Shown one piece after another: positions 1-9,049 of a stretch of DNA of 64,000 nt. Source of the stretch: an uncultured Bacteroidaceae bacterium (GTDB lineage Bacteria > Bacteroidota > Bacteroidia > Bacteroidales > Bacteroidaceae); NCBI GenBank assembly GCA_934271655.1, contig CAKQRW010000006.1, positions 2,604 to 66,603 of the forward strand. Reading direction: 5' to 3'. Both the position numbers and the translations under genes were made by a program. Each line of letters opens with the position of its first letter. Position 1 is the stretch's first letter. The notes beneath the pieces were generated by a model, which was not told the DNA's origin, searched no databases, and saw only the letters and a list, made by a program, of their open reading frames with translations.

Positions 1-1629
1 CAACTTTCCAAATGACGGCCTATCAATATCATGCGCATACGTCAGCTGCATTTGGGTGTTGCCAATCGGAAACGTCATAGATAAGGAAGGAAAAACGTTT
101 GAATAATTTCTGCTCTGTTCCTGAGCGAGTTTGCCCTGCTCATAATAATTAAAGTCCACATATTCATAGCGCACCCCCAACTGTACGCCAAGTTTGCCAA
201 ATTGACGAGCATAATCTACAAAAGTAGATGTCATAGCCTCTTTCGCCTCATCATCCACTGTGCTCACAATAGAAGCGGGCCATCCCTCATAACCAGTCTG
301 GCGGCTCGTATTCGAGTATTCTCCACCAATAGACAACTGTCCTCCAGACAGAGGCGCAGTAAGCACAAGTTTTGCGGCAGCCATACTATTTCTGTTGTCA
401 GATTTTGTCAGCACATCCTGTGTGCTGGATGCGCCAGACTCATAATCTGTATTGTTCTCTTGGTTATCTCTGTCAGATTTTACCTTATTCCAATAGTAAT
501 CAGCATTGAAATCCACGCCAACATTTCCAAATTTTCCTACAAAATAAATATTCGATGAGACATTTGTGTTTTTTCCCGAAGCCACTATATTCGTAATGGA
601 ATTTTCTTTCAATATGCTGTTCATCAACGTCGACATCTCTACAGATCCCTTAAAGGAATTTTTAGTATAGGTGTCATATATGACCTCTGCCCCCCAAGAG
701 CAACTGTCATTAAGAAGATGATTGCCCCTTATGTATACATACGGCTCACATTGGGTTGCTTCCTGCCTTGCCAAGGCTGTCTGCCTATACTTCATGCCAT
801 CATTTTCAATCAGCTGGTCGACACCGTTCGTCTGCGGCAAATGATTATACGACAGGTAAGAATAACATCTCACATCAAATTTCTTCTCACGATAATTCAA
901 ATCCAGCGATTCCCATTCATTAGTGCGTTGCTCCTCATTCATGGAAAAATACGCTGCAGCATCTACTCCAAAGCCCTCACCCTTGGGCTTCTTTGTAGTG
1001 ATACGTATGACACTCTTCACGGAAGCGCTGTAACGAGCACCTGGATTGGTGATAACCTCTACATCTTTCACTTCGTCACTTTTTATATAACGAATATCTG
1101 AAAGACCCGAAACCTTTCTTCCATTCAGATATATTTCTGGAGTTCCCCTGCCGAAGACCTCCACTTTTCCGTTTTGTGCAGACACATTAGGCATGCGATC
1201 CAACAGTTGCTCTATCGTGTTTGTCTTCTCCAACACGCTGCCAGCCACGGTAACGACCATTCCCTCGCCTCGCATTTGAATTTTGGGTCTGTCGCTCTTG
1301 ACAAGCACCTCATTTAGAATGTTAGTATCCTCATCCAGCACTATGCGCAACGTATCCTTGCCATCTATATCAAACATTGATGTCTTGTATCCCATAGAAG
1401 AGCATCGGATAAATCCCTTCTTTCCCTGAGAATTCATTGTGAATCTACCTTCAGCATTCGTACTGACACCATCTATAAACATTGAGTCGACAGACGACAG
1501 CAACACCACATTAACCATCTCCAGCGGTCTGCCTACAGCATCCACCACATGTCCACTCACATTTTGTCCAAAAGATGCGCGTGAGACAAGAGACAGAAAA
1601 AACATAATTATAATTTTATTCTTTTTCAT
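1..1629 (-). CDS. TonB-dependent receptor-like outer-membrane protein, N-terminal 543 codons (gene continues beyond the left window edge)
   Basis: Absent from the supplied ORF track because there is no stop inside the window. Manual minus-strand translation from the ATG at 1629..1627 gives MKKNKIIIMFFLSLVSRASFGQNVSGHVVDAVGRPLEMVNVVLLSSVDSMFIDGVSTNAEGRFTM..., a signal peptide plus a CarboxypepD_reg-like domain. A plug-like segment follows (...GKVEVFGRGTPEIYLNGRKVSGLSDIRYIKSDEVKDVEVITNPGARYSASVKSVIRITTKK...). I checked triplet by triplet that this frame has no stop from 1629 down to position 1. Confidence 0.8.
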   Translation of the reverse strand, partial: MKKNKIIIMFFLSLVSRASFGQNVSGHVVDAVGRPLEMVNVVLLSSVDSMFIDGVSTNAEGRFTMNSQGKKGFIRCSSMGYKTSMFDIDGKDTLRIVLDEDTNILNEVLVKSDRPKIQMRGEGMVVTVAGSVLEKTNTIEQLLDRMPNVSAQNGKVEVFGRGTPEIYLNGRKVSGLSDIRYIKSDEVKDVEVITNPGARYSASVKSVIRITTKKPKGEGFGVDAAAYFSMNEEQRTNEWESLDLNYREKKFDVRCYSYLSYNHLPQTNGVDQLIENDGMKYRQTALARQEATQCEPYVYIRGNHLLNDSCSWGAEVIYDTYTKNSFKGSVEMSTLMNSILKENSITNIVASGKNTNVSSNIYFVGKFGNVGVDFNADYYWNKVKSDRDNQENNTDYESGASSTQDVLTKSDNRNSMAAAKLVLTAPLSGGQLSIGGEYSNTSRQTGYEGWPASIVSTVDDEAKEAMTSTFVDYARQFGKLGVQLGVRYEYVDFNYYEQGKLAQEQSRNYSNVFPSLSMTFPIGNTQMQLTYAHDIDRPSFGKL

Positions 1630-1648
1630 ATTCTTTATTTGATGAGTT

Positions 1649-2980
1649 TTATTTATTGCACAATTTGTAATAATCCTCCAAGCACTTGTCCAATAATCCT
1701 GGAGCCTTCTGCATGCACTGACACAAATTGTATTCGCCTCCATGGTACAGGTTGCGTTCATTGTACCATGCACACTTGCCATTGCATATAGGCAAATAGA
1801 AACAACTGCGGCACTCTGCGTCATTATACCATACACAACCTACATGGTATCTGTAATAAAGCTGCTTGTTCACTATATCATTGCCATCGATACAACCAAC
1901 GATTCTCGTCTTGTCAGACACGTCATTCCAACACTTGTATATCTCTCCCAAAGGACCTATTATAAAAGAGTTGGCACTTGAGGCACAGCATATCCGTGCA
2001 TGGCTCATGCACGGATATACCTCCTTCCCCAACATGCCCTTTGAATATATGTCATAAAATAAATACGACGATTCATAACACCCTAAAGCAGGTTCGACTA
2101 TATTTGTCTTTTCTGCATTGTCCAACCTTATTATTCCAGGATATACTACCACGTTATCAAGACGTTCTTTTTCTTTCATCTCCTTAAACAAAGCATAATA
2201 ATCATCTACATTTCCCTTATCGACATTTACCCTTACGCTCACCCTTGCCCCAGGAAATTCCTTGGAAACATGTGCGATATTTTCAATTATTCTATCATAC
2301 GAAGGAGATTTCGAACCCTTTTGCTTTCTTAACTTATCATGTCGTTCTTTGCGTCCATCCAGCGTAATCTGAATATTATTCAAAGTATACTTCCTAAACA
2401 CATCTATCGCTTTCCCCTCAAAATAATACCCATTTGTTACTATTGAATGGCTTTGCAATTTTATCCCCATATTGTCAATGCCATGCAGTATCTTTTCTAT
2501 AGCGTTTATTGCCAGAAGAGGTTCACCACCATACCACGTAAGACTTGTGTTGTCCTTTCCTTCATTTCCCTCGATAAAATCCAGTAGTTTATCTATAGTA
2601 GAATTACTCATCACGCCGCCATGCTTGTTGCCCTCAAAACAATAAGAGCAGTCAAAATTGCAATCTAATGTTGGAGCCAGCACCAAATTCAATTTACTTT
2701 TATCATGCTGAACTGTCTGTGTCAAGAACTGACTGCTCAATATATAGTCTTCATCATCAGTCCATTTTCCAACAAAACCCTCATTAACAAGTGTCTGCAG
2801 GACATCTTGTTTTACAGAGGATTCATTCAAAGGCATTTTCTCGCTCTGGCACCGCTGCAATAGACTATATATTTGCTCGAACAATTCTATGAAAGAATTT
2901 GTCTTGGAACAATATGCAAGTGGAGTTCCATCTTTCGTACGAAAGAAATGCACAAATCTTGATACAAACAATCTTTCCAT
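1649..2980 (-). CDS. radical SAM/SPASM-domain peptide-modifying enzyme (candidate RiPP maturase)
   Basis: 443-aa ORF. CX3CX2C motif at Cys107/111/114 (LDCNFDCSYCFEG), WYGGEPLL motif, and a Cys-rich C-terminal auxiliary-cluster region (CRSCFYLPICNGKCAW, CQC). About 95 aa precede the rSAM core, the size and position of an RRE/PqqD-like domain. Confidence 0.85.
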   Translation of the reverse strand: MERLFVSRFVHFFRTKDGTPLAYCSKTNSFIELFEQIYSLLQRCQSEKMPLNESSVKQDVLQTLVNEGFVGKWTDDEDYILSSQFLTQTVQHDKSKLNLVLAPTLDCNFDCSYCFEGNKHGGVMSNSTIDKLLDFIEGNEGKDNTSLTWYGGEPLLAINAIEKILHGIDNMGIKLQSHSIVTNGYYFEGKAIDVFRKYTLNNIQITLDGRKERHDKLRKQKGSKSPSYDRIIENIAHVSKEFPGARVSVRVNVDKGNVDDYYALFKEMKEKERLDNVVVYPGIIRLDNAEKTNIVEPALGCYESSYLFYDIYSKGMLGKEVYPCMSHARICCASSANSFIIGPLGEIYKCWNDVSDKTRIVGCIDGNDIVNKQLYYRYHVGCVWYNDAECRSCFYLPICNGKCAWYNERNLYHGGEYNLCQCMQKAPGLLDKCLEDYYKLCNK

Positions 2981-3067
2981 TATAAAATTCTGTGTTTTAT
3001 AAGAGCACGTGCTTCTACTCTATAAGCACGCACTCTTTTGTTTCTCTTATTTTATCAACATTTGTTA

Positions 3068-3247
3068 TTATTTCCCTGATGGTGGTTTGGGATTTGACGC
3101 ATTGTCTTTACATAAATTGATTAAACAGAAATTTCCACATTCAGAGGATTCCTCTGCAACAAGGTTCTCATTCAAGCCACCTCGTATGCTAAGCAAATCC
3201 TCTGGTGAAAGAACATCTTTACTCTTTATGACCTTAATGTCTCCCAT
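3068..3247 (-). CDS. putative 59-aa RiPP precursor peptide (double-glycine leader, three-Cys core)
   Basis: Below the 60-aa cutoff of the ORF track; found by manual translation. Sequence: MGDIKVIKSKDVLSPEDLLSIRGGLNENLVAEESSECGNFCLINLCKDNASNPKPPSGK, with stop TAA at 3070..3068. The leader LSPEDLLSIRGG resembles Bacteroidetes GG-type leaders. It lies on the same strand, 87 nt upstream of the rSAM gene. Confidence 0.6.
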   Translation of the reverse strand: MGDIKVIKSKDVLSPEDLLSIRGGLNENLVAEESSECGNFCLINLCKDNASNPKPPSGK

Positions 3248-3385
3248 ATTCTTTCATTTGTTTACGCCTACTTAATAGCGCATAAGCACTCGCTCCTTTT
3301 TAATAGTAAGGTCTATTCATAACAAGTCGACTGTCTTATGTTGTTTTATAAATCTGGTTATGCATGGCTTATATATCTGACGACA

Positions 3386-3766
3386 TCATAAATCTACAAT
3401 AGTCCAATATATCACATCTCCACACACAAGCTGTATCTCCACTTCCCCCGTGATGCTTCCATGCATGTCCACACATCCTCTTATATCCACCGTTCCTATA
3501 CAAATCGGTATTCCCCCACTTGAGACAATGAAGACAGCATCACCAGCATGCTCTTTCCCTAAGCTCAATACATCTCCATCCATAAAAGCACTTATCATCA
3601 ATATAGGCATACGGCTTGATGGTTTCGAACCATGCTTCGTTGCCACAGGATGGAACACCACTTCCTCTTTTTTTGGTTGCTTGGTTGTGCTGCCATTCGA
3701 CTGCGCTCTTGACTGTACTGCAGATAGCAATAATATCACCATCACCACATACACATTTCTTTTCAT
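3386..3766 (-). CDS. small secreted hypothetical protein (signal peptide; possibly a DUF3244-like beta-sandwich, uncertain)
   Basis: The track ORF is 3386..3811. The likely start is the internal ATG at 3766 (MKRNVYVVMVILLLSAVQSRAQS...), which gives a classical signal peptide. No recognisable catalytic motif. Confidence 0.6.
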   Translation of the reverse strand: MKRNVYVVMVILLLSAVQSRAQSNGSTTKQPKKEEVVFHPVATKHGSKPSSRMPILMISAFMDGDVLSLGKEHAGDAVFIVSSGGIPICIGTVDIRGCVDMHGSITGEVEIQLVCGDVIYWTIVDL

Positions 3767-3862
3767 CTTATATTTTTCTTTGTCTTCCGCAAAGTTACCA
3801 TTATACATCAATATTCACAAATTTGCTACTGTATTTCTTTACATTCATTTTACATTTTCTTT

Positions 3863-4486
3863 TCACACGACAGCTAAACATATGATTATTAGATATAAAT
3901 TATTTTTACATTTTTTTACACTATATGCATTCTGGATATTTTTAAACAATTTTCTTGCATTTTTCTCCCCAAACAACTTTTCGTTGATGTTTGCCTTCAG
4001 GTTTGTAACACGCTGGGAAGACACATCAAGCAGAATAGAAATCTCACCACTGGAAAATCCCATAAACACCAACAGACAGACCCTTATCTCATGAGGACTG
4101 AGTCTGTGCCTACACATGAGTGAGTCCAATTCCGGCAACTGATGACGTAGCGTATCCTGCAACATTTTCCAGTCATCGTCTTTGGGGATATTTGAGTCAG
4201 AGCAAGGATTTACTATATATTTGAACCTTCTCAATGTCGCATCATACAACACCTCATTTTCTCTGACATCTTTTTCAGCAGACTGATACATGGATATTAT
4301 AACATTTTGCTTATCTATTTCCTTATCCTTCTCTTTTATAGCTACTGCTGATGTTGTCTTCACCTGAGAAACTTTTTGAAGAACGCACAAAAGGCTTTGT
4401 CTTAATTCGTGTATTTTCAGATTTCTTGACTCTTTCTCGGCGCTTAGCCGTTCCATCTTCCTCCTATACGATATATATATACACAC
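3863..4486 (-). CDS. C-terminal part of a split regulator: coiled coil plus LuxR/GerE-type HTH
   Basis: HTH segment LSPHEIRVCLLVFMGFSSGEISILLDVSSQRVTNLKANINEKLFG. Overlaps the upstream TPR ORF by 23 nt in a different frame. The track start is a GTG. Confidence 0.65.
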   Translation of the reverse strand: MCIYISYRRKMERLSAEKESRNLKIHELRQSLLCVLQKVSQVKTTSAVAIKEKDKEIDKQNVIISMYQSAEKDVRENEVLYDATLRRFKYIVNPCSDSNIPKDDDWKMLQDTLRHQLPELDSLMCRHRLSPHEIRVCLLVFMGFSSGEISILLDVSSQRVTNLKANINEKLFGEKNARKLFKNIQNAYSVKKCKNNLYLIIICLAVV

Positions 4487-5660
4487 ATGCAGATACCACT
4501 ATTGCAGCAATAAGTGCCAAAATCCAGGCTTGTCGCTCCGCATCATTTTCTTTCTCAAGAATATTCATCTGCAACCTGTGGTAATCATACATAGCAGATG
4601 CCTGCATGACTGCACCTGTGCGTATGTTAGACACATAATTATAAAAAGCTTTTTCCTGAAGCCTTGAGTACTTTCGGACAGAATCAGCATCCTGCCTGTC
4701 TGCATATATAGCCAACAATCCATTATATCCCTCATACTTATACCCATTCTTCGCAAGCACCCTATAATAATATTCCGCAGAATCTTTATCATGAATTCCC
4801 TCATAATACATGGCTTTATAATAACTGTAATATCCGCAAGCCAACGACTCCACACATTCACCAGGCAAGGGAGCCTCCTTCTCGTACACAGTCATGTAGC
4901 TGCGAGCCGTATCATACTCTTTTCTGAAAAGATAGTAATGTATTATCGACTGCATGGCTTTTGCCGCATCCTCTGGCATACCATTTTTTTTGTAAAGACT
5001 GATGCATTCTTTCATAGCCACCAACGATTTGAGGCTGTCCCCCATCTCATTATACTGAAGAGCCACAAGTTCCCGGCCATGTATATACTCATAGAGGTTT
5101 CCTGCCTTCTTTGCATAGTAGCTGTAACGTTCATATGCTTCTAAAGCCTCTTCATCCAAATACTGGTTGCTGTACATATCTGCCATCTGGCCATATATTC
5201 TATAAAGCGTGGCAAAGTCACACATTGCATCAACCGTATCCGTACATTCCGCAGCCTCCTTATAGCATTGGATAGCCTTTGGAGCTTCATTCTGGTCTCG
5301 GTATATGCATCCAAGCAGATACAGAGCCAGCATCTTCTCATTGGATGTGCCACGGGTCCTATAATATTCCACCACTTCATTAAACGCTGAGTCGGATGGC
5401 ATATCACCATAAAGTTTGTTCTGCACCTTTGCGTATAGCATGCGGAATTTCATCTTCTCCCTCTTACTGAATTTGTCAATATCAGCCATGCGCAGCAGAC
5501 TGTCCTTAGCTGCATGAGGATTACTTTCCATGAGAGTGTCTATGAGCCCCAACCTTTCCATCCTTACGCTATTGCCTGTGCAGCTCATCGCAATCATGAG
5601 CAAGATAGGAATTACAAGTATTGTGGACATACCATGAACATATACTCCTCCTATTTTCAT
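4464..5660 (-). CDS. N-terminal part of a split regulator: signal/lipoprotein-like N-terminus, TPR-like repeats, TM helix
   Basis: The track ORF is 4464..5771. The likely start is the ATG at 5660 (MKIGGVYVHGMSTILVIPILLMIAMSCTGN). TPR-like Y/A-rich repeats are present (ALYLLGCIYRDQNEAPKAIQCYKEA..., EALEAYERYSYYAKKAG...). The ORF ends inside a hydrophobic helix, ILALIAAIVVSACVYIYIV*. Confidence 0.65.
   Translation of the reverse strand: MKIGGVYVHGMSTILVIPILLMIAMSCTGNSVRMERLGLIDTLMESNPHAAKDSLLRMADIDKFSKREKMKFRMLYAKVQNKLYGDMPSDSAFNEVVEYYRTRGTSNEKMLALYLLGCIYRDQNEAPKAIQCYKEAAECTDTVDAMCDFATLYRIYGQMADMYSNQYLDEEALEAYERYSYYAKKAGNLYEYIHGRELVALQYNEMGDSLKSLVAMKECISLYKKNGMPEDAAKAMQSIIHYYLFRKEYDTARSYMTVYEKEAPLPGECVESLACGYYSYYKAMYYEGIHDKDSAEYYYRVLAKNGYKYEGYNGLLAIYADRQDADSVRKYSRLQEKAFYNYVSNIRTGAVMQASAMYDYHRLQMNILEKENDAERQAWILALIAAIVVSACVYIYIV
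4471..4481. repeat. (AT)5A dinucleotide run flanked by (AC)3, located at the frameshift between the two regulator ORFs
   Basis: Plus strand cg-atatatatata-cacaca-tg. One extra AT unit would fuse the two ORFs. Confidence 0.9.
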
Positions 5661-5771: not shown

Positions 5772-7709
5772 CTACACCAACCGCACTATCATAGCCGTTC
5801 TGTCGTCAAGCTGGTCTGCCTGAGCCGCAAATGTCTGCACATCAGCCAAGACAAAGTCTGCCAACTCAGCAGAGGTCTTGTCGCCATGAGCCTTCAGCGC
5901 CTCCATAAGGCGTTTCTCACCATACATGCTCATGTCTGCATTGACAGCATCAGTCACCCCGTCGCTATAGAGACACAGCGCAGAGCCTTTCTGCATGACC
6001 ACAGACTGGGCTGCATAGACCGTAGCGGAAGATGCTCCCAATGGCATGTTGCGTTCCACCTCAAGCAGAGCGGCCTCGCTATGGGCTGTCAGCATGACTG
6101 GAGCAGGATGTCCTGCGTTGCAATAAGACACACGTCCGGAAGCCAGATTGAGCACGCCGATGAATGCGGGGCAGAACACGAAGTCAGGATTGCACTCAGA
6201 CAAAGCACGGTTGATGATATCTGCAAGCACCTCTGGCTTGTCGGTACGCATAGCCTCAGAACGGAAGATGCGGCAGGCGGCAGACATCAGCGATGCTGCC
6301 AGCGTGCCCCTGGCCGACACGCCCATCATCATGAAATAAAGTTTGCCATCGGCAACAAGATGCTGATACATGTCGCCAGCCGATATCTTGGCAGGCTGTA
6401 TGCGCGCTCCTATATCCACACGGCTTTCACCCTGCTCCATGGAGGAGGAAGCCTGCAAGATGTCATGCCGCATGGCACTGGCCAGGCGCATGTCTGTCTG
6501 TACCACCTCCTCAGCCACTATGTCACGGCGCATCCTGTCGCTCTGGCTGGCAATAGCTTTCTGCATGTAGACGAACGCATTCCTTAGCTGGGCTATCTCG
6601 TCCACACGGTTATATGTCACCAGCTCATTGTCATATCTGCCATGAGCTACGCGGCGCATGGCTGCTGTGATGTTTTCCACAGGATGCACGACAAAACGCA
6701 CAGACAGTTGGCACACCACAACGACAAGAATGACAAACACGACGGCGAGCACCGATGCCCACAAGGCATAGCGCTCCACGCCAACGATGACCTCCTTGGC
6801 CGGACACACTGAGAGAAGGGTCCAGCCTGTCTTTTTCAGGCTTCTGTAGGTGAGGTAATAGTCATCGCCGTTCCATTTGTTGAGGATATAGCCAGAGCGT
6901 CCAGCCGCCATGTCATCCTTCATAGTCTGCAAGGCTTCGTCGCTATGGCCGTAAGCCTCCGCAAAGAAAGCCTCATGAAGCACCATGGCTGAGTCGGGGT
7001 GCGCTATGTGCATGCCTCTTCTGTCGAGCAGCACATTGAAGGAACTGGGGAATATCCTCATGTCGGAGACAATCTTCGCTATGCTGTGCAATGAGACCTC
7101 CACCGCCGCCACAGCATACAGTTTGCCTTCCGGGTCGTACATAGGGCATGAGTATGTCACAACATTCATGTCGGAACCGTCAGTTTCTTTTCCGCCGTGA
7201 TACTCTTTCTTAGGATCGCCCCAATAAGGGGACTTTGTCAGCTTAGGCACGATGAACCAATTGAGGTATTCATATTCATACTCATACTCATTAAGGTTCT
7301 TGGGCACGATGCTGCTGCCCTCTCTCACGGCACATGGAGCGTAGTAGCGTCCCTTGCTTGGGTAGTAGTCTGGCACGAAGGCTATGGTGCAGGCGTGGAT
7401 GAGACTGTTGTCCTCCACTATTGAGCTTACAGCTGAGTAGAGGCTGTCGGGGTTGTCAAGCCTGCTTGCCAGCCTCCATGTGTGGTTGCTCATGGTGACC
7501 TCGACAGAGTGGAGCTCGTCGTCTATATGGAAGGCTATGGCTTCCATCTCCGCCAGCGTGTAACGCGCTGCTCCTGCCTCCAGCTTGTTCTTTTCCATGT
7601 GCAGAAATACCGTGAAGATAATAAGCATGGCCACTATGGAGAAGAGCGCCACGTGCGTCACAACGCGTCCCGTGATGGTGTGCAGCAATGTGATAAATAT
7701 TCGTCTCAT
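5772..7709 (-). CDS. membrane sensor PP2C/SpoIIE-family protein phosphatase (TM, Cache-like periplasmic domain, TM, HAMP, PP2C)
   Basis: 645 aa with two hydrophobic helices flanking a ~280-aa extracytoplasmic region. HAMP-like segment RFVVHPVENITAAMRRVAHGRYDNEL. SpoIIE-type C-terminus (GDMYQHLVADGKLYFMMMGVSARGTLAASLMSAA...DDRTAMIVRLV). Confidence 0.8.
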   Translation of the reverse strand: MRRIFITLLHTITGRVVTHVALFSIVAMLIIFTVFLHMEKNKLEAGAARYTLAEMEAIAFHIDDELHSVEVTMSNHTWRLASRLDNPDSLYSAVSSIVEDNSLIHACTIAFVPDYYPSKGRYYAPCAVREGSSIVPKNLNEYEYEYEYLNWFIVPKLTKSPYWGDPKKEYHGGKETDGSDMNVVTYSCPMYDPEGKLYAVAAVEVSLHSIAKIVSDMRIFPSSFNVLLDRRGMHIAHPDSAMVLHEAFFAEAYGHSDEALQTMKDDMAAGRSGYILNKWNGDDYYLTYRSLKKTGWTLLSVCPAKEVIVGVERYALWASVLAVVFVILVVVVCQLSVRFVVHPVENITAAMRRVAHGRYDNELVTYNRVDEIAQLRNAFVYMQKAIASQSDRMRRDIVAEEVVQTDMRLASAMRHDILQASSSMEQGESRVDIGARIQPAKISAGDMYQHLVADGKLYFMMMGVSARGTLAASLMSAACRIFRSEAMRTDKPEVLADIINRALSECNPDFVFCPAFIGVLNLASGRVSYCNAGHPAPVMLTAHSEAALLEVERNMPLGASSATVYAAQSVVMQKGSALCLYSDGVTDAVNADMSMYGEKRLMEALKAHGDKTSAELADFVLADVQTFAAQADQLDDRTAMIVRLV

Positions 7710-8689
7710 TTTTCTTTGGTAAATTTAGAGTAGTTAGTTTTCTTGTTGACAAAGCCATATTGGTACAGCAGCTCAGACAGCCATTCATACGACTTCTTAT
7801 TAAGCTGGAAAGACGGCTTGGACTCACTCTTTTCCTTCTGCTGCTCTATGATTGAATCGAGCTGCACGCGCTGCAGGGTGCGGCTTGTGCGCACGCCGTC
7901 GCGCTCGGCATATTTCATCACTATGTCCAGAGCCTTCTCCTTGTTGGCCCTCACCCATTTCCATCCTCTGAGCGAGGCGTCGGCAAAGGCCTTGCACTCC
8001 ATGGGATGCTGCTGGTAGTATTCGTATGTGACATAGACACCGTCCTCTGGGATATCATAGCCGCGCCCGCGGAAAGAGAACGAACTGCCGTAGCAGAGAT
8101 TGGACATGTCTATCTGCACTTTCTCATTATACGACTTGACGAGTATGGCGTCTACAGCTCCGCTGGCATATAGCCCAACCACATCAGTCGTCTCTATCCA
8201 TTTGATGCCCGTCTGGTATATATAGTCTACCAGGCGCGGCAGTTCGCTGAAGCCGGATTTCCATGTGCCTACCCTGCAGCCCCTCAGGTCTCTCAGCGAC
8301 TTGACTCCAGGTTTTCTTGCCACGACCATCAGGGTGCAATGCTGCGATGTCTGGAGGATATTGACGAGAGGAGGCATTTTTTCCATTGCCACAAGAGCTG
8401 TGATAGCCTCTGAGGTGACGATGTCGCATCGCCTGTCGTAGAGAGAAGTGACGGACAGGCTGAAAGGGTCGCTGCGCTTAAAGCGCACATTGAGTCCTGC
8501 CTCACGGTAATAGCCCAGTTCGCTGGCTGCATAGTATCCTGCGAACTGGCTCTGCGTGTCAAACTGCGGCATGAACACGACGCGCTGCGCTTCTACAGCG
8601 GCAGAGACGCATGCGAGTGCAGCCACCAGCAGGCAACGCAGGTTACAGGCACGTGTCTTTTTCATATCAGAAAAAAGTTTCATTTCCAT
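7706..8689 (-). CDS. NMT1/THI5-like (ABC-type nitrate/sulfonate/bicarbonate-like) substrate-binding protein with signal peptide
   Basis: 327 aa. Signal peptide LLVAALACVSAAVEAQ, then FMPQFDTQSQFAGYYAASELGYYREAGLNVRF, typical of the NMT1/THI5-like SBP fold. Its stop overlaps the phosphatase start (ATGA at 7706..7709). Confidence 0.7.
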   Translation of the reverse strand: MEMKLFSDMKKTRACNLRCLLVAALACVSAAVEAQRVVFMPQFDTQSQFAGYYAASELGYYREAGLNVRFKRSDPFSLSVTSLYDRRCDIVTSEAITALVAMEKMPPLVNILQTSQHCTLMVVARKPGVKSLRDLRGCRVGTWKSGFSELPRLVDYIYQTGIKWIETTDVVGLYASGAVDAILVKSYNEKVQIDMSNLCYGSSFSFRGRGYDIPEDGVYVTYEYYQQHPMECKAFADASLRGWKWVRANKEKALDIVMKYAERDGVRTSRTLQRVQLDSIIEQQKEKSESKPSFQLNKKSYEWLSELLYQYGFVNKKTNYSKFTKEK

Positions 8690-8728
8690 AAGTCATTTTC
8701 ATAGGTGGTACAACATTTCCGGGCCGTC

Positions 8729-9049
8729 CTACAGCTGACTGTCAGGCGCAGGCTCTATCGACAGCTTGTGCATGAAGCCAAGCGTGTCCAGTTTATTGAG
8801 GATGTTTTTATTCATGCCTCTGATGGTGTACACTGCATGCCGCGCCTTCGACACCCTGTCTGCCACGAGCAGGGCGCGGATACCCTCGTCGCATATGTAA
8901 TCCACATCTGTGCAGTCGAGCACATGGTTGGCTGATGGGGTGATATTGCTGACCAGTATCTCCTGAAGTTTATCAGCATCGTCATAGTCCACTCGTCCCG
9001 TAAGCCTTGCAATAGCTTCTGCCCCGCATCTTGTTAGTTCTGCTTTCAT
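8729..9049 (-). CDS. STAS-domain protein (anti-sigma-factor antagonist, RsbV/SpoIIAA-like)
   Basis: 106 aa with a typical STAS layout (IARLTGRVDYDDADKLQEIL...LDCTDVDYICDEGIRALLVA...IRGMNKNILNKLDTLGF). Confidence 0.75.
   Translation of the reverse strand: MKAELTRCGAEAIARLTGRVDYDDADKLQEILVSNITPSANHVLDCTDVDYICDEGIRALLVADRVSKARHAVYTIRGMNKNILNKLDTLGFMHKLSIEPAPDSQL

Follow-up and report, generated by a model that had tools for sequence, protein, structure and literature searches.

We describe a probable biosynthetic operon for a peptide that is ribosomally synthesized and then post-translationally modified (RiPP) at the left end of a 64-kb stretch of DNA, here called the window, from an uncultured Bacteroidaceae bacterium (GenBank assembly GCA_934271655.1, contig CAKQRW010000006.1, positions 2,604 to 66,603). 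The locus encodes a 59-aa precursor peptide with a double-glycine (GG) leader, a radical S-adenosylmethionine (rSAM) maturase and a TonB-dependent transporter (TBDT), and is completed beyond the window by a C39-peptidase ABC exporter (PCAT). We regard the whole model as probable, and hold a modified, PCAT-processed peptide, taken by itself, with greater confidence. A preliminary description of this DNA had read the locus as a RiPP system, and this reading is borne out: the small open reading frame (ORF) is conserved, and hidden Markov models (HMMs) and fold comparison place the enzyme with RiPP maturases and not with anaerobic sulfatase maturases (anSME). All of the features that it listed were located where given, with the gap between the maturase stop and the transporter ATG at 1629 now read as 19 nt (Table 1).

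Comparisons were made across 80 loci with rSAM relatives, drawn from a scan of one genome per species, and with contigs identical or close to the window (loci and contigs carry labels such as L001, L003, L053 and L085); rSAM homologues number about 1,800. The closest relative of the enzyme in that scan is from Segatella copri HF1825 (L003), at 61% identity, and by this measure the host looks Prevotellaceae-like. Parabacteroides distasonis NM39_I3 and Bacteroides fluxus YIT 12057 also carry orthologous cassettes. Synteny across the loci shows that the cassette order is conserved, with a TPR/LuxR regulator, a small secreted β-sandwich protein, the precursor, the rSAM enzyme, the TBDT and the PCAT following one another, and a Prevotella metagenome-assembled genome (L053) carries the complete cassette (609-aa regulator, 139-aa secreted protein, precursor, rSAM, TBDT and PCAT).

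As there are 90 ORFs of at least 30 aa in 9 kb, the 59-codon ORF is not significant alone, and its case therefore rests on conservation. A GG-leader, Cys-rich small ORF lies directly upstream of the homologous rSAM gene, on the same strand, in 29 of the 33 Bacteroidota loci examined, and is thus kept beside orthologous enzymes. There are one or two such ORFs per locus, 45-95 aa long, each with a leader ending ...L-x4-L/M-x2-I/V-x-GG and then a Cys-rich core. The window ORF reads exactly as first quoted: its leader of 24 aa ends in GG, and residues 37, 41 and 46 of the core are Cys (C-x3-C-x4-C). A GG leader was recognised by its length (about 15-30 aa), its GG end (or GA/GS) and the hydrophobic character of positions -4, -7 and -12; the window leader has this motif (I-4, L-7, L-12, G-2 G-1), and 32 family precursors give the consensus L-12, L/M-7, I/V-4, GG. 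The call rests on the motif and not on an HMM, as TIGR01847 matched 1 of 15 family precursors, at E 0.1. The exact 59-aa peptide is found on at least 24 metagenome contigs, its sole variants differ in the leader, and independent gene callers also predict the ORF as a gene. From these sequence features we judge the ORF to be a genuine precursor.

Among 5.8 billion proteins, profile searching recovered 36 members of the precursor family with several core types, including CTCDCWFSNEN, CTDCNCWFxNEN, CICKCGTNSA and CKCKCALSNC. In the Segatella copri L003 precursor the leader is near-identical (MDIKVIKNKDVMTTEDLVNIKGG) and the core is unrelated apart from Cys and Asn (…TTCTCDCWISNSN…). Conserved leaders joined to cores that are hypervariable apart from Cys/Asn richness are the classic RiPP pattern. 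The C-x3-C-x4-C spacing, which had been put forward for testing across related genomes, is not a feature of the family, because the window core type accounts for only three near-identical sequences; orthologues carry CxCxC…NxN cores, and the leader alone is conserved. No Pfam or NCBIfam model matches the 59-aa peptide, even at E 10. Membership of the GG-Bacteroidales precursor/maturase system (TIGR04149/TIGR04148), also raised at the outset, did not hold: TIGR04149 is weakly matched by 9 of 15 family precursors (best E 3e-5) and leaves the window peptide unmatched at E <= 10, and the rSAM protein belongs to an unnamed sister family.

In close relatives a tandem pair of precursor genes whose cores differ (CTCDC… and CTDCNC…, for instance) stands upstream of one rSAM gene, as at L004 7452..7936, L005 7515..7888, L020 5300..5690 and L023 7557..7933; the window has one. 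Longer precursors with three tandem DCTCGSANSN-like modules are present at L015 7656..7940 and L016 1566..1817, and these suggest a recurring structural element made of two Cys and two Asn.

Precursor stop and rSAM start are 87 nt apart, and the DNA between them contains a stem-loop whose stem is 14 bp long (-20.8 kcal/mol, z -4.45). In 26 of 28 homologous loci the spacer past the last precursor gene folds significantly better than shuffled sequence (median z -5.4), with stems of 10-20 bp that have no common sequence. As structure is kept without sequence conservation, we suggest that the hairpin is probably a leaky terminator or a transcript stabiliser that sets the ratio of precursor to enzyme mRNA. 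Its conservation also supports the small ORF as a real expression unit. Scanning for sigma-70 and intrinsic-terminator consensus sequences gave no guidance in DNA of a Bacteroidota host and did not pick up the hairpin, which has no U-tract.

The maturase ORF carries CX3CX2C at Cys107/111/114, as had been noted, and the triad is invariant in an alignment of 23 homologues (39-60% identity), as is the GGEP motif (G151-G152-E153-P154, in GGEPLL); the match to the rSAM domain PF04055 reaches 55 bits (cutoff 29.5). The Cys-rich C terminus, previously called SPASM-like, includes CRSCFYLPICNGKC and LCQC and carries a complete seven-Cys SPASM motif (C331-x13-G345-x4-C350, C390-x2-C393-x5-C399-x3-C403, C420) when judged by CX9-15GX4C, a gap, CX2CX5CX3C, a gap and C. 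Six of these residues (C331, C350, C390, C399, C403 and C420) are invariant among the 23 homologues and C393 is kept in at least 90%; the Pfam SPASM model gave no match on the protein at E <= 1. An AlphaFold2 (AF2) model (mean predicted local distance difference test score, pLDDT, 89.4) places a β-β-β-β-α-α-β-α domain before a TIM-like core, with N-terminal elements at pLDDT above 90 (β4-6, β10-14, β20-24, β29-32, α35-46, α58-66, α75-91). In this model the N-terminal extension of about 95 aa is predicted to form a domain like the RiPP recognition element (RRE; a leader-binding, PqqD-like winged helix of three β-strands and three helices), in agreement with the preliminary description, and it is covered by the fold alignment to CteB; no PqqD Pfam match was found on the N terminus. 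The top Foldseek match is CteB (E 3e-20, 439 of 443 columns), followed by TigE, anSME and SuiB; CteB, anSME and SuiB are SPASM enzymes. A profile search of Protein Data Bank (PDB) sequences likewise gave CteB (5WGG) at E 5e-26 and then TigE (8VPO), with an alignment that sets query residues 3-92 against the TigE N terminus.

Scores against curated NCBIfam models were 218 bits for TIGR04463 (cutoff 525), 195 for Clo7bot (TIGR04334; cutoff 600), 173 for CefB (NF038107; cutoff 600), 102 for PapB (NF047865; cutoff 340), 89.6 for the SCIFF maturase (TIGR03974; cutoff 425), 66.6 for anSME (TIGR03942; cutoff 349.45) and 50 for the GG-Bacteroidales maturase (TIGR04148; cutoff 300). PapB is the highest-scoring of these that we take to be biochemically characterised. 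Since the protein lies below all family cutoffs, chemistry is not transferable by homology. Sequence and modelled fold together suggest an RRE-rSAM-SPASM RiPP maturase of an unnamed clade, the nearest characterised relatives of which form Cys thioethers.

The cores themselves offer a second view of the chemistry. The set of 32 cores shows an 11-fold enrichment of Cys and a 2-fold enrichment of Asn, and Asn is most frequent +3, +4 and +6 from Cys (frequencies of 0.20, 0.21 and 0.32, versus 0.11 overall); several cores consist of repeated C-x-C-x3-N-x-N modules. The window core has Asn/Asp at +2/+3 of each Cys (C37..N39, C41..N44, C46..D48/N49). NxxcB makes a Cys-Asn β-thioether. PapB is described as forming Cys-Asp/Glu thioethers (PMC9413430), CteB is described as forming Cys-Thr thioethers (PMC10352776), and hairpin-type sactipeptides have a CxCxC…GxGxG pattern (PMC10288494). 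On the basis of the Cys/Asn core pattern and the PapB, NxxcB and hairpin-type sactipeptide precedents, we predict that Cys-to-Asn/Asp thioethers in the core are plausible, and we lean slightly towards thioether chemistry overall.

A different product is unlikely but has some basis. The enzyme could instead form aromatic-to-Cβ cyclophanes of the DarE, DynA or triceptide type, or epimerise residues, leaving the Cys in disulfides or in some other role. DynA, YhhB (cyclophane) and other non-thioether models match the protein partially, the closest orthologous cores conserve a W-F-S-N-x-N stretch with Ω-x-N motifs, and sequence similarity is known to mispredict rSAM RiPP chemistry (PMC10288494). 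Set against this, Cys is the one residue enriched in all clades, many cores (such as the DCTCGSANSN repeats) are without any aromatic residue, the window core has a single Phe and no Trp, and thioether synthases are the top characterised relatives by both score and fold. It is hardly credible that the small ORF is spurious and that the enzyme works on a protein or on a non-peptide substrate, an anSME role being one example. That anSME structures are among the fold matches (E ~1e-15) and that the 59-aa ORF is matched by neither Pfam nor NCBIfam would fit such a view, but the anSME model falls far short of its cutoff and its alignment leaves out the N-terminal domain, the neighbourhood has no sulfatase gene, and conservation extends to the precursor-like ORF, the hairpin and the PCAT alike. 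A placement with anSME, which would have undercut the RiPP reading, was thus not seen, given that the best matches are RiPP maturase models and CteB is the top PDB match; the conservation data led us to reject both the anSME and the spurious-ORF readings.

Export machinery completes the cassette in the same contig and in sister contigs. The preliminary description was right that no C39-ABC gene is visible in the window; one is nevertheless present on the contig, about 2.8 kb past the left edge and after the outer-membrane transporter, so the locus is not without an exporter. The PCAT is 720-736 aa long (N terminus MFRDFPYIRQHDSMQCGVACL), with PF03412, ABC_membrane and ABC_tran domains and an intact QCGVACL catalytic motif; the C39 domain of the L004 orthologue scores 118 bits. 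Among Bacteroidota loci with enough flanking DNA, a TBDT lies directly downstream of the rSAM gene in 27 of 41, versus 1 of 17 Firmicutes loci, and a PCAT follows in 19 of 28; PCAT/ABC genes are present in 16 of 20 Firmicutes loci. The phyletic pattern of the TBDT therefore ties it to outer-membrane passage and not to modification.

The sequence of the outer-membrane protein identifies it as a TonB-dependent transporter, as first described, cut by the window edge. Its elements run from a signal peptide through a carboxypeptidase-regulatory-like domain, a TonB-box-like LNEVLVKS and a plug to a PF14905/PF00593 barrel. PF14905 matches at E 2e-27 for the window fragment and 2.9e-57 for the full-length L002 copy (195 bits), TonB_dep_Rec_b-barrel scores 44 bits, CarbopepD_reg_2 also matches, and Plug is marginal at 21-22 bits against a cutoff of 23.9. 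Across 25 aligned homologues, both a TonB-box-like L-x-E-V-V-V motif and the consensus of the plug are kept. The cassette has no membrane-fusion protein, and an outer-membrane protein without such a partner has been noted for several Bacteroidales clusters and left open (PMC10352776). There is precedent for TBDT export in the Oar/PopC system of Myxococcus xanthus, where a TBDT is needed for secretion (PMC6434023). Export appears the more likely direction in which this TBDT handles the peptide, with import, for sensing or re-uptake, as the conventional alternative and the data undecided between the two. A more specific proposal is possible, if doubtful: the TBDT may be a dedicated outer-membrane gate, such that the PCAT frees the cleaved RiPP in the periplasm and TonB-powered displacement of the plug releases it.

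The spacer between the TBDT and PCAT genes (L001 13680..14137, L083, L085) ranges from 335 to 496 nt, a variation of about 160 nt between sister strains; in L001 it includes a pair of similar ...TTTATCAGTCACTAT... segments, which may be a small duplication or insertion. Past the PCAT in sister strains is an 890-aa ORF (L085 16661..19333) that does not follow the PCAT in more distant cassettes, such as those of L004 and L053, has no confident Pfam domain and gives weak matches to the β-sandwich domains MG2 and SdrD_B.

Upstream of the precursor, the small secreted protein and the membrane TPR/LuxR-type regulator of the preliminary description are both present, but the regulator lies at 3863..5660, outside the 1..3811 range given to the locus, and is split by a frameshift in this strain. 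Sister strains, whose contigs originate from Hadza samples, have one 585-aa regulator, versus ORFs of 398 aa and 197 aa in the window. A TG/TA dinucleotide repeat accounts for the difference. Over 18 loci, the alleles are (TG)4(TA)5 in 12 and (TG)5(TA)4 in 3, with (TG)3(TA)5 only in this strain's contigs; there are nine units in 15 sister contigs and eight only in contigs 100% identical to the window. Loss of one 2-bp unit from the repeat thus shifts the reading frame of the regulator in this strain. This could inactivate or rewire regulation, or act as an on/off switch. Phase variation of the repeat was downgraded as an explanation, as the in-frame alleles differ by point substitution and not by slippage, the frameshift allele is restricted to contigs 100% identical to the window, and the evidence is weak. 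The ATG of the downstream regulator ORF is preceded by AGGAGG.

The N-terminal half of the regulator has weak TPR matches in Pfam and a distant match to the NCBIfam model BT3442_fam (E 1.4e-15, 57 bits versus a cutoff of 940). GerE matches the C-terminal half at E 0.002, below the gathering cutoff; in sister strains, as in L053, a single protein joins this segment to the TPR part. The 609-aa L053 regulator has an N-terminal anchor, TPR, a transmembrane helix, a coiled coil and a LuxR-like helix-turn-helix (HTH). The TPR part is predicted to be periplasmic and the HTH cytoplasmic, and a TPR protein is found somewhere in the locus in 15 of 47 Bacteroidota loci.

The secreted protein most likely starts at ATG 3766 (126 aa), with a -7 box upstream; a start at TTG 3811 is less likely. 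The box was found with the Bacteroides-type pattern TAnnTTTG, which occurs 45 times in the window versus 30 expected and marks candidates only. The secreted protein evolves quickly: a full HMMER search found 4 homologues of it among 1.84 billion representatives, and jackhmmer found no relatives among all ORFs of the 80 related loci. The AF2 model (pLDDT 79.5) has an all-β body, a β-sandwich, for which Foldseek gives weak matches to the DUF3244 structures 3SD2 and 4G5A (E 0.06-0.1, target-normalised template modelling score 0.52-0.58). The window protein has no Pfam match, including to DUF3244 (PF11589), and hhalign to DUF3244-like positional analogues was not significant (E 0.02, 2% probability); the positional analogues in L023 and L040 exceed the Pfam DUF3244 cutoff. 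The DUF3244 assignment is therefore tentative. BT_3441 of Bacteroides thetaiotaomicron is a DUF3244 protein with a solved structure (PDB 3D33).

In B. thetaiotaomicron, BT_3442 (TPR) and BT_3441 (DUF3244) head a MACPF operon (PMC2954219). There, as here, a TPR protein and then a small Ig-like secreted protein come before secreted or pore-forming factors and an outer-membrane β-barrel. The cargo differs, being MACPF in one case and a RiPP in the other, the relationship is distant, and the small protein here is weakly DUF3244-like. As a TPR/DUF3244 pair also heads an unrelated MACPF operon, we suggest by analogy that the pair may be a portable regulatory module for secreted-factor operons.

Taken together, these features suggest the following scheme. 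The 59-aa precursor would be translated, and its GG leader would dock on the RRE-like N-terminal domain of the rSAM enzyme, which, by 5'-deoxyadenosyl radical chemistry and with two auxiliary Fe-S clusters, would cross-link the three core Cys. By analogy with PapB, NxxcB and CteB, the likeliest products would be thioethers to the nearby Asn/Asp residues. The PCAT would then cut after Gly24 and move the 35-aa core across the inner membrane, and the co-transcribed TBDT would handle the peptide at the outer membrane, probably by export. The regulator, with periplasmic TPR and a cytoplasmic LuxR-type HTH, and the secreted β-sandwich protein would form a regulatory front end, and the hairpin would probably keep precursor mRNA above enzyme mRNA. 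What the sequences show directly is the identity of the genes, their domains, the synteny, the conserved leader and hairpin, and the frameshift; we infer leader-RRE binding, the thioether chemistry and its acceptors, the cleavage site, the outer-membrane direction, the regulatory logic and any bacteriocin or signal role.

The same operon could be read with the peptide returning to the cell. In one such account, which we consider rather unlikely, the peptide is a quorum-sensing signal that the TBDT re-imports to the periplasm, where the TPR domain senses it and the operon is auto-induced. The predicted topology of the regulator, the recurrence of TPR proteins in the loci, a TonB box and plug conserved as is typical of importers, and the lack of a recognisable immunity gene are all consistent with this, and signalling roles have been raised for such clusters (PMC10352776). 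Yet the same kind of TPR regulator and DUF3244 pair heads the unrelated MACPF toxin operon of B. thetaiotaomicron (PMC2954219), so a general front end and not a peptide sensor is possible, and hypervariable cores with conserved leaders are more typical of antagonistic peptides. It is very unlikely that the product is a metal-binding RiPP, exported by the PCAT and taken up again, metal-loaded, through the cognate TBDT, as methanobactin is through MbnT. Clusters for siderophores or chalkophores classically include a TBDT gene, and the cores are extremely Cys-rich; however, the cassette is without a periplasmic binding protein, an inner-membrane importer or a reductase, no metal-responsive regulator is present, and the nearest characterised enzymes use Cys thiols in thioethers, which would lose the ligands.

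The RiPP operon, probably with peptide export, remains our preferred model, and several points weigh against it. The enzyme reaches no curated NCBIfam cutoff (its best score being less than half of the 525 bits required by TIGR04463), and its identity to CteB is 19%. The core type of the window (ECGNFCLINLCKDN) is represented by only three near-identical sequences in the 5.8 billion proteins, which differ in the leader, and its Cys spacing departs from the CxCxC..NxN cores of the closest orthologues; the core may be decaying or neofunctionalised. Asn makes up 20% of the window core, such that Asn at +2/+3 of all three Cys is weakly non-random (~p 0.05, an estimate). TonB-dependent transporters are normally importers. 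Finally, with its regulator frameshifted, the operon of this strain may be silent.

Table 1. Features of the RiPP locus in the window
Feature	Positions	Strand	Remarks
TonB-dependent transporter	1..1629	minus	N-terminal 543 of 775 aa inside window; remainder past left edge
rSAM-SPASM peptide maturase with RRE-like N-terminal domain, 443 aa	1649..2980	minus	predicted thioether former
Stem-loop, 14-bp stem	3001..3037	minus	between precursor stop and rSAM start
Precursor peptide, 59 aa	3068..3247	minus	leader MGDIKVIKSKDVLSPEDLLSIRGG, core LNENLVAEESSECGNFCLINLCKDNASNPKPPSGK
Small secreted protein, 126 aa	3386..3766	minus	cleavable signal peptide, predicted β-sandwich
Bacteroides-type -7 promoter box TAACTTTG	3790..3797	minus	pattern search; candidate operon start
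Regulator C-terminal half, 197 aa	3863..4456	minus	coiled coil and LuxR/GerE-type HTH
(TG)3(TA)5 dinucleotide repeat	4472..4487	minus	in codons of the regulator's second membrane helix
Regulator N-terminal half, 398 aa	4464..5660	minus	signal/lipoprotein-like anchor, TPR, transmembrane helix

Directly upstream of the regulator (window 5772..9049, minus strand) are genes for a STAS-domain protein, an NMT1-like periplasmic binding protein and a dCache-HAMP-SpoIIE (PP2C) sensor phosphatase, a string that adjoins the RiPP locus in all sister contigs and looks like a partner-switching signalling module. A MobA/VirD2-type relaxase gene (L003 70..1020; Pfam E 1.5e-38) adjoins the closest orthologous cassette on an 8.6-kb contig of Segatella copri HF1825, which suggests that this cassette travels on a mobilisable element. 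Neither a tRNA gene, by tRNA scan, nor an Rfam family above gathering score, by Rfam scan, was found in the whole window.

The system shares parts with several known ones. Like CteB/thermocellin and the SCIFF-type maturases, it is predicted to combine an RRE-like domain, rSAM and SPASM architecture and two auxiliary clusters with a Cys-rich core; beyond the low identity and SCIFF score given above, it differs in that its precursor is not a SCIFF peptide, and it comes with a GG leader, a PCAT and an outer-membrane transporter in a Gram-negative host. Small rings that join Cys to a nearby Asp or Asn are made in the PapB/freyrasin (Cys-x3-Asp β-thioethers) and NxxcB (Cys-Asn) systems, and the window-family cores are Asn/Asp-enriched at +3, +4 and +6, but the PapB alignment starts at residue 100 and leaves the N-terminal domain uncovered, and the motif spacing differs, with C-x1-2-N in the window and CxC-x3-NxN in relatives. 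A Bacteroidales host and a short ...IKGG-leader precursor beside an rSAM gene are common to the GG-Bacteroidales system, the maturase of which belongs to a different rSAM clade. MbnT, the TBDT that imports methanobactin, and Oar/PopC are cases in which a TBDT is tied to one secreted product, although the Oar substrate is a protein.

Clusters of this general architecture have already been described bioinformatically in Bacteroidales (PMC10352776). Fernandez-Cantos et al. (2023) mined 1,136 Bacteroidales genomes with BAGEL4 and reported 1,340 areas, in which the rSAM-only class was the commonest, GG-motif precursors were linked to PCATs, a PCAT was accompanied by an outer-membrane protein (OMP) without a membrane-fusion protein, and some clusters held TPR genes (PMC10352776). 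The present locus fits that picture and is thus not of a new kind. Absent from the survey's description are a CxCxC..NxN family of cores, a hairpin past the precursor, recognition of the OMP as a TBDT, and a DUF3244 partner. What the present analysis adds is a delimited rSAM clade with its families of cores, the Cys/Asn module, a hairpin kept across loci, the finding that the OMP is a TBDT and, among the compared loci, is restricted to Bacteroidota, together with the regulator/DUF3244 module and the frameshift.

Although Bacteroidales are dominant in the human gut, their class I bacteriocins have so far eluded characterisation, and no RiPP product of theirs has been isolated and characterised (PMC10352776). 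The family, large and easy to recognise, with a core cassette that is widely conserved, offers handles on this problem, in the form of an rSAM maturase chemistry with a specific prediction of Cys-Asn cross-links in CxC-x3-NxN cores. It bears on peptide passage through the outer membrane where, as in this phylum, clusters have no membrane-fusion-protein or TolC partners, and on regulation by a TPR/LuxR and DUF3244 module that is also found in front of the unrelated, putatively pore-forming MACPF operon. If TBDT export is true, it would represent a Bacteroidota-specific route of peptide secretion that replaces the membrane-fusion-protein/TolC route of Proteobacteria, and would be only the second known case of TBDT-mediated export. 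If the product is an antimicrobial or a signal, the family would be relevant to competition between Prevotella and Segatella strains within non-industrialised gut microbiomes.

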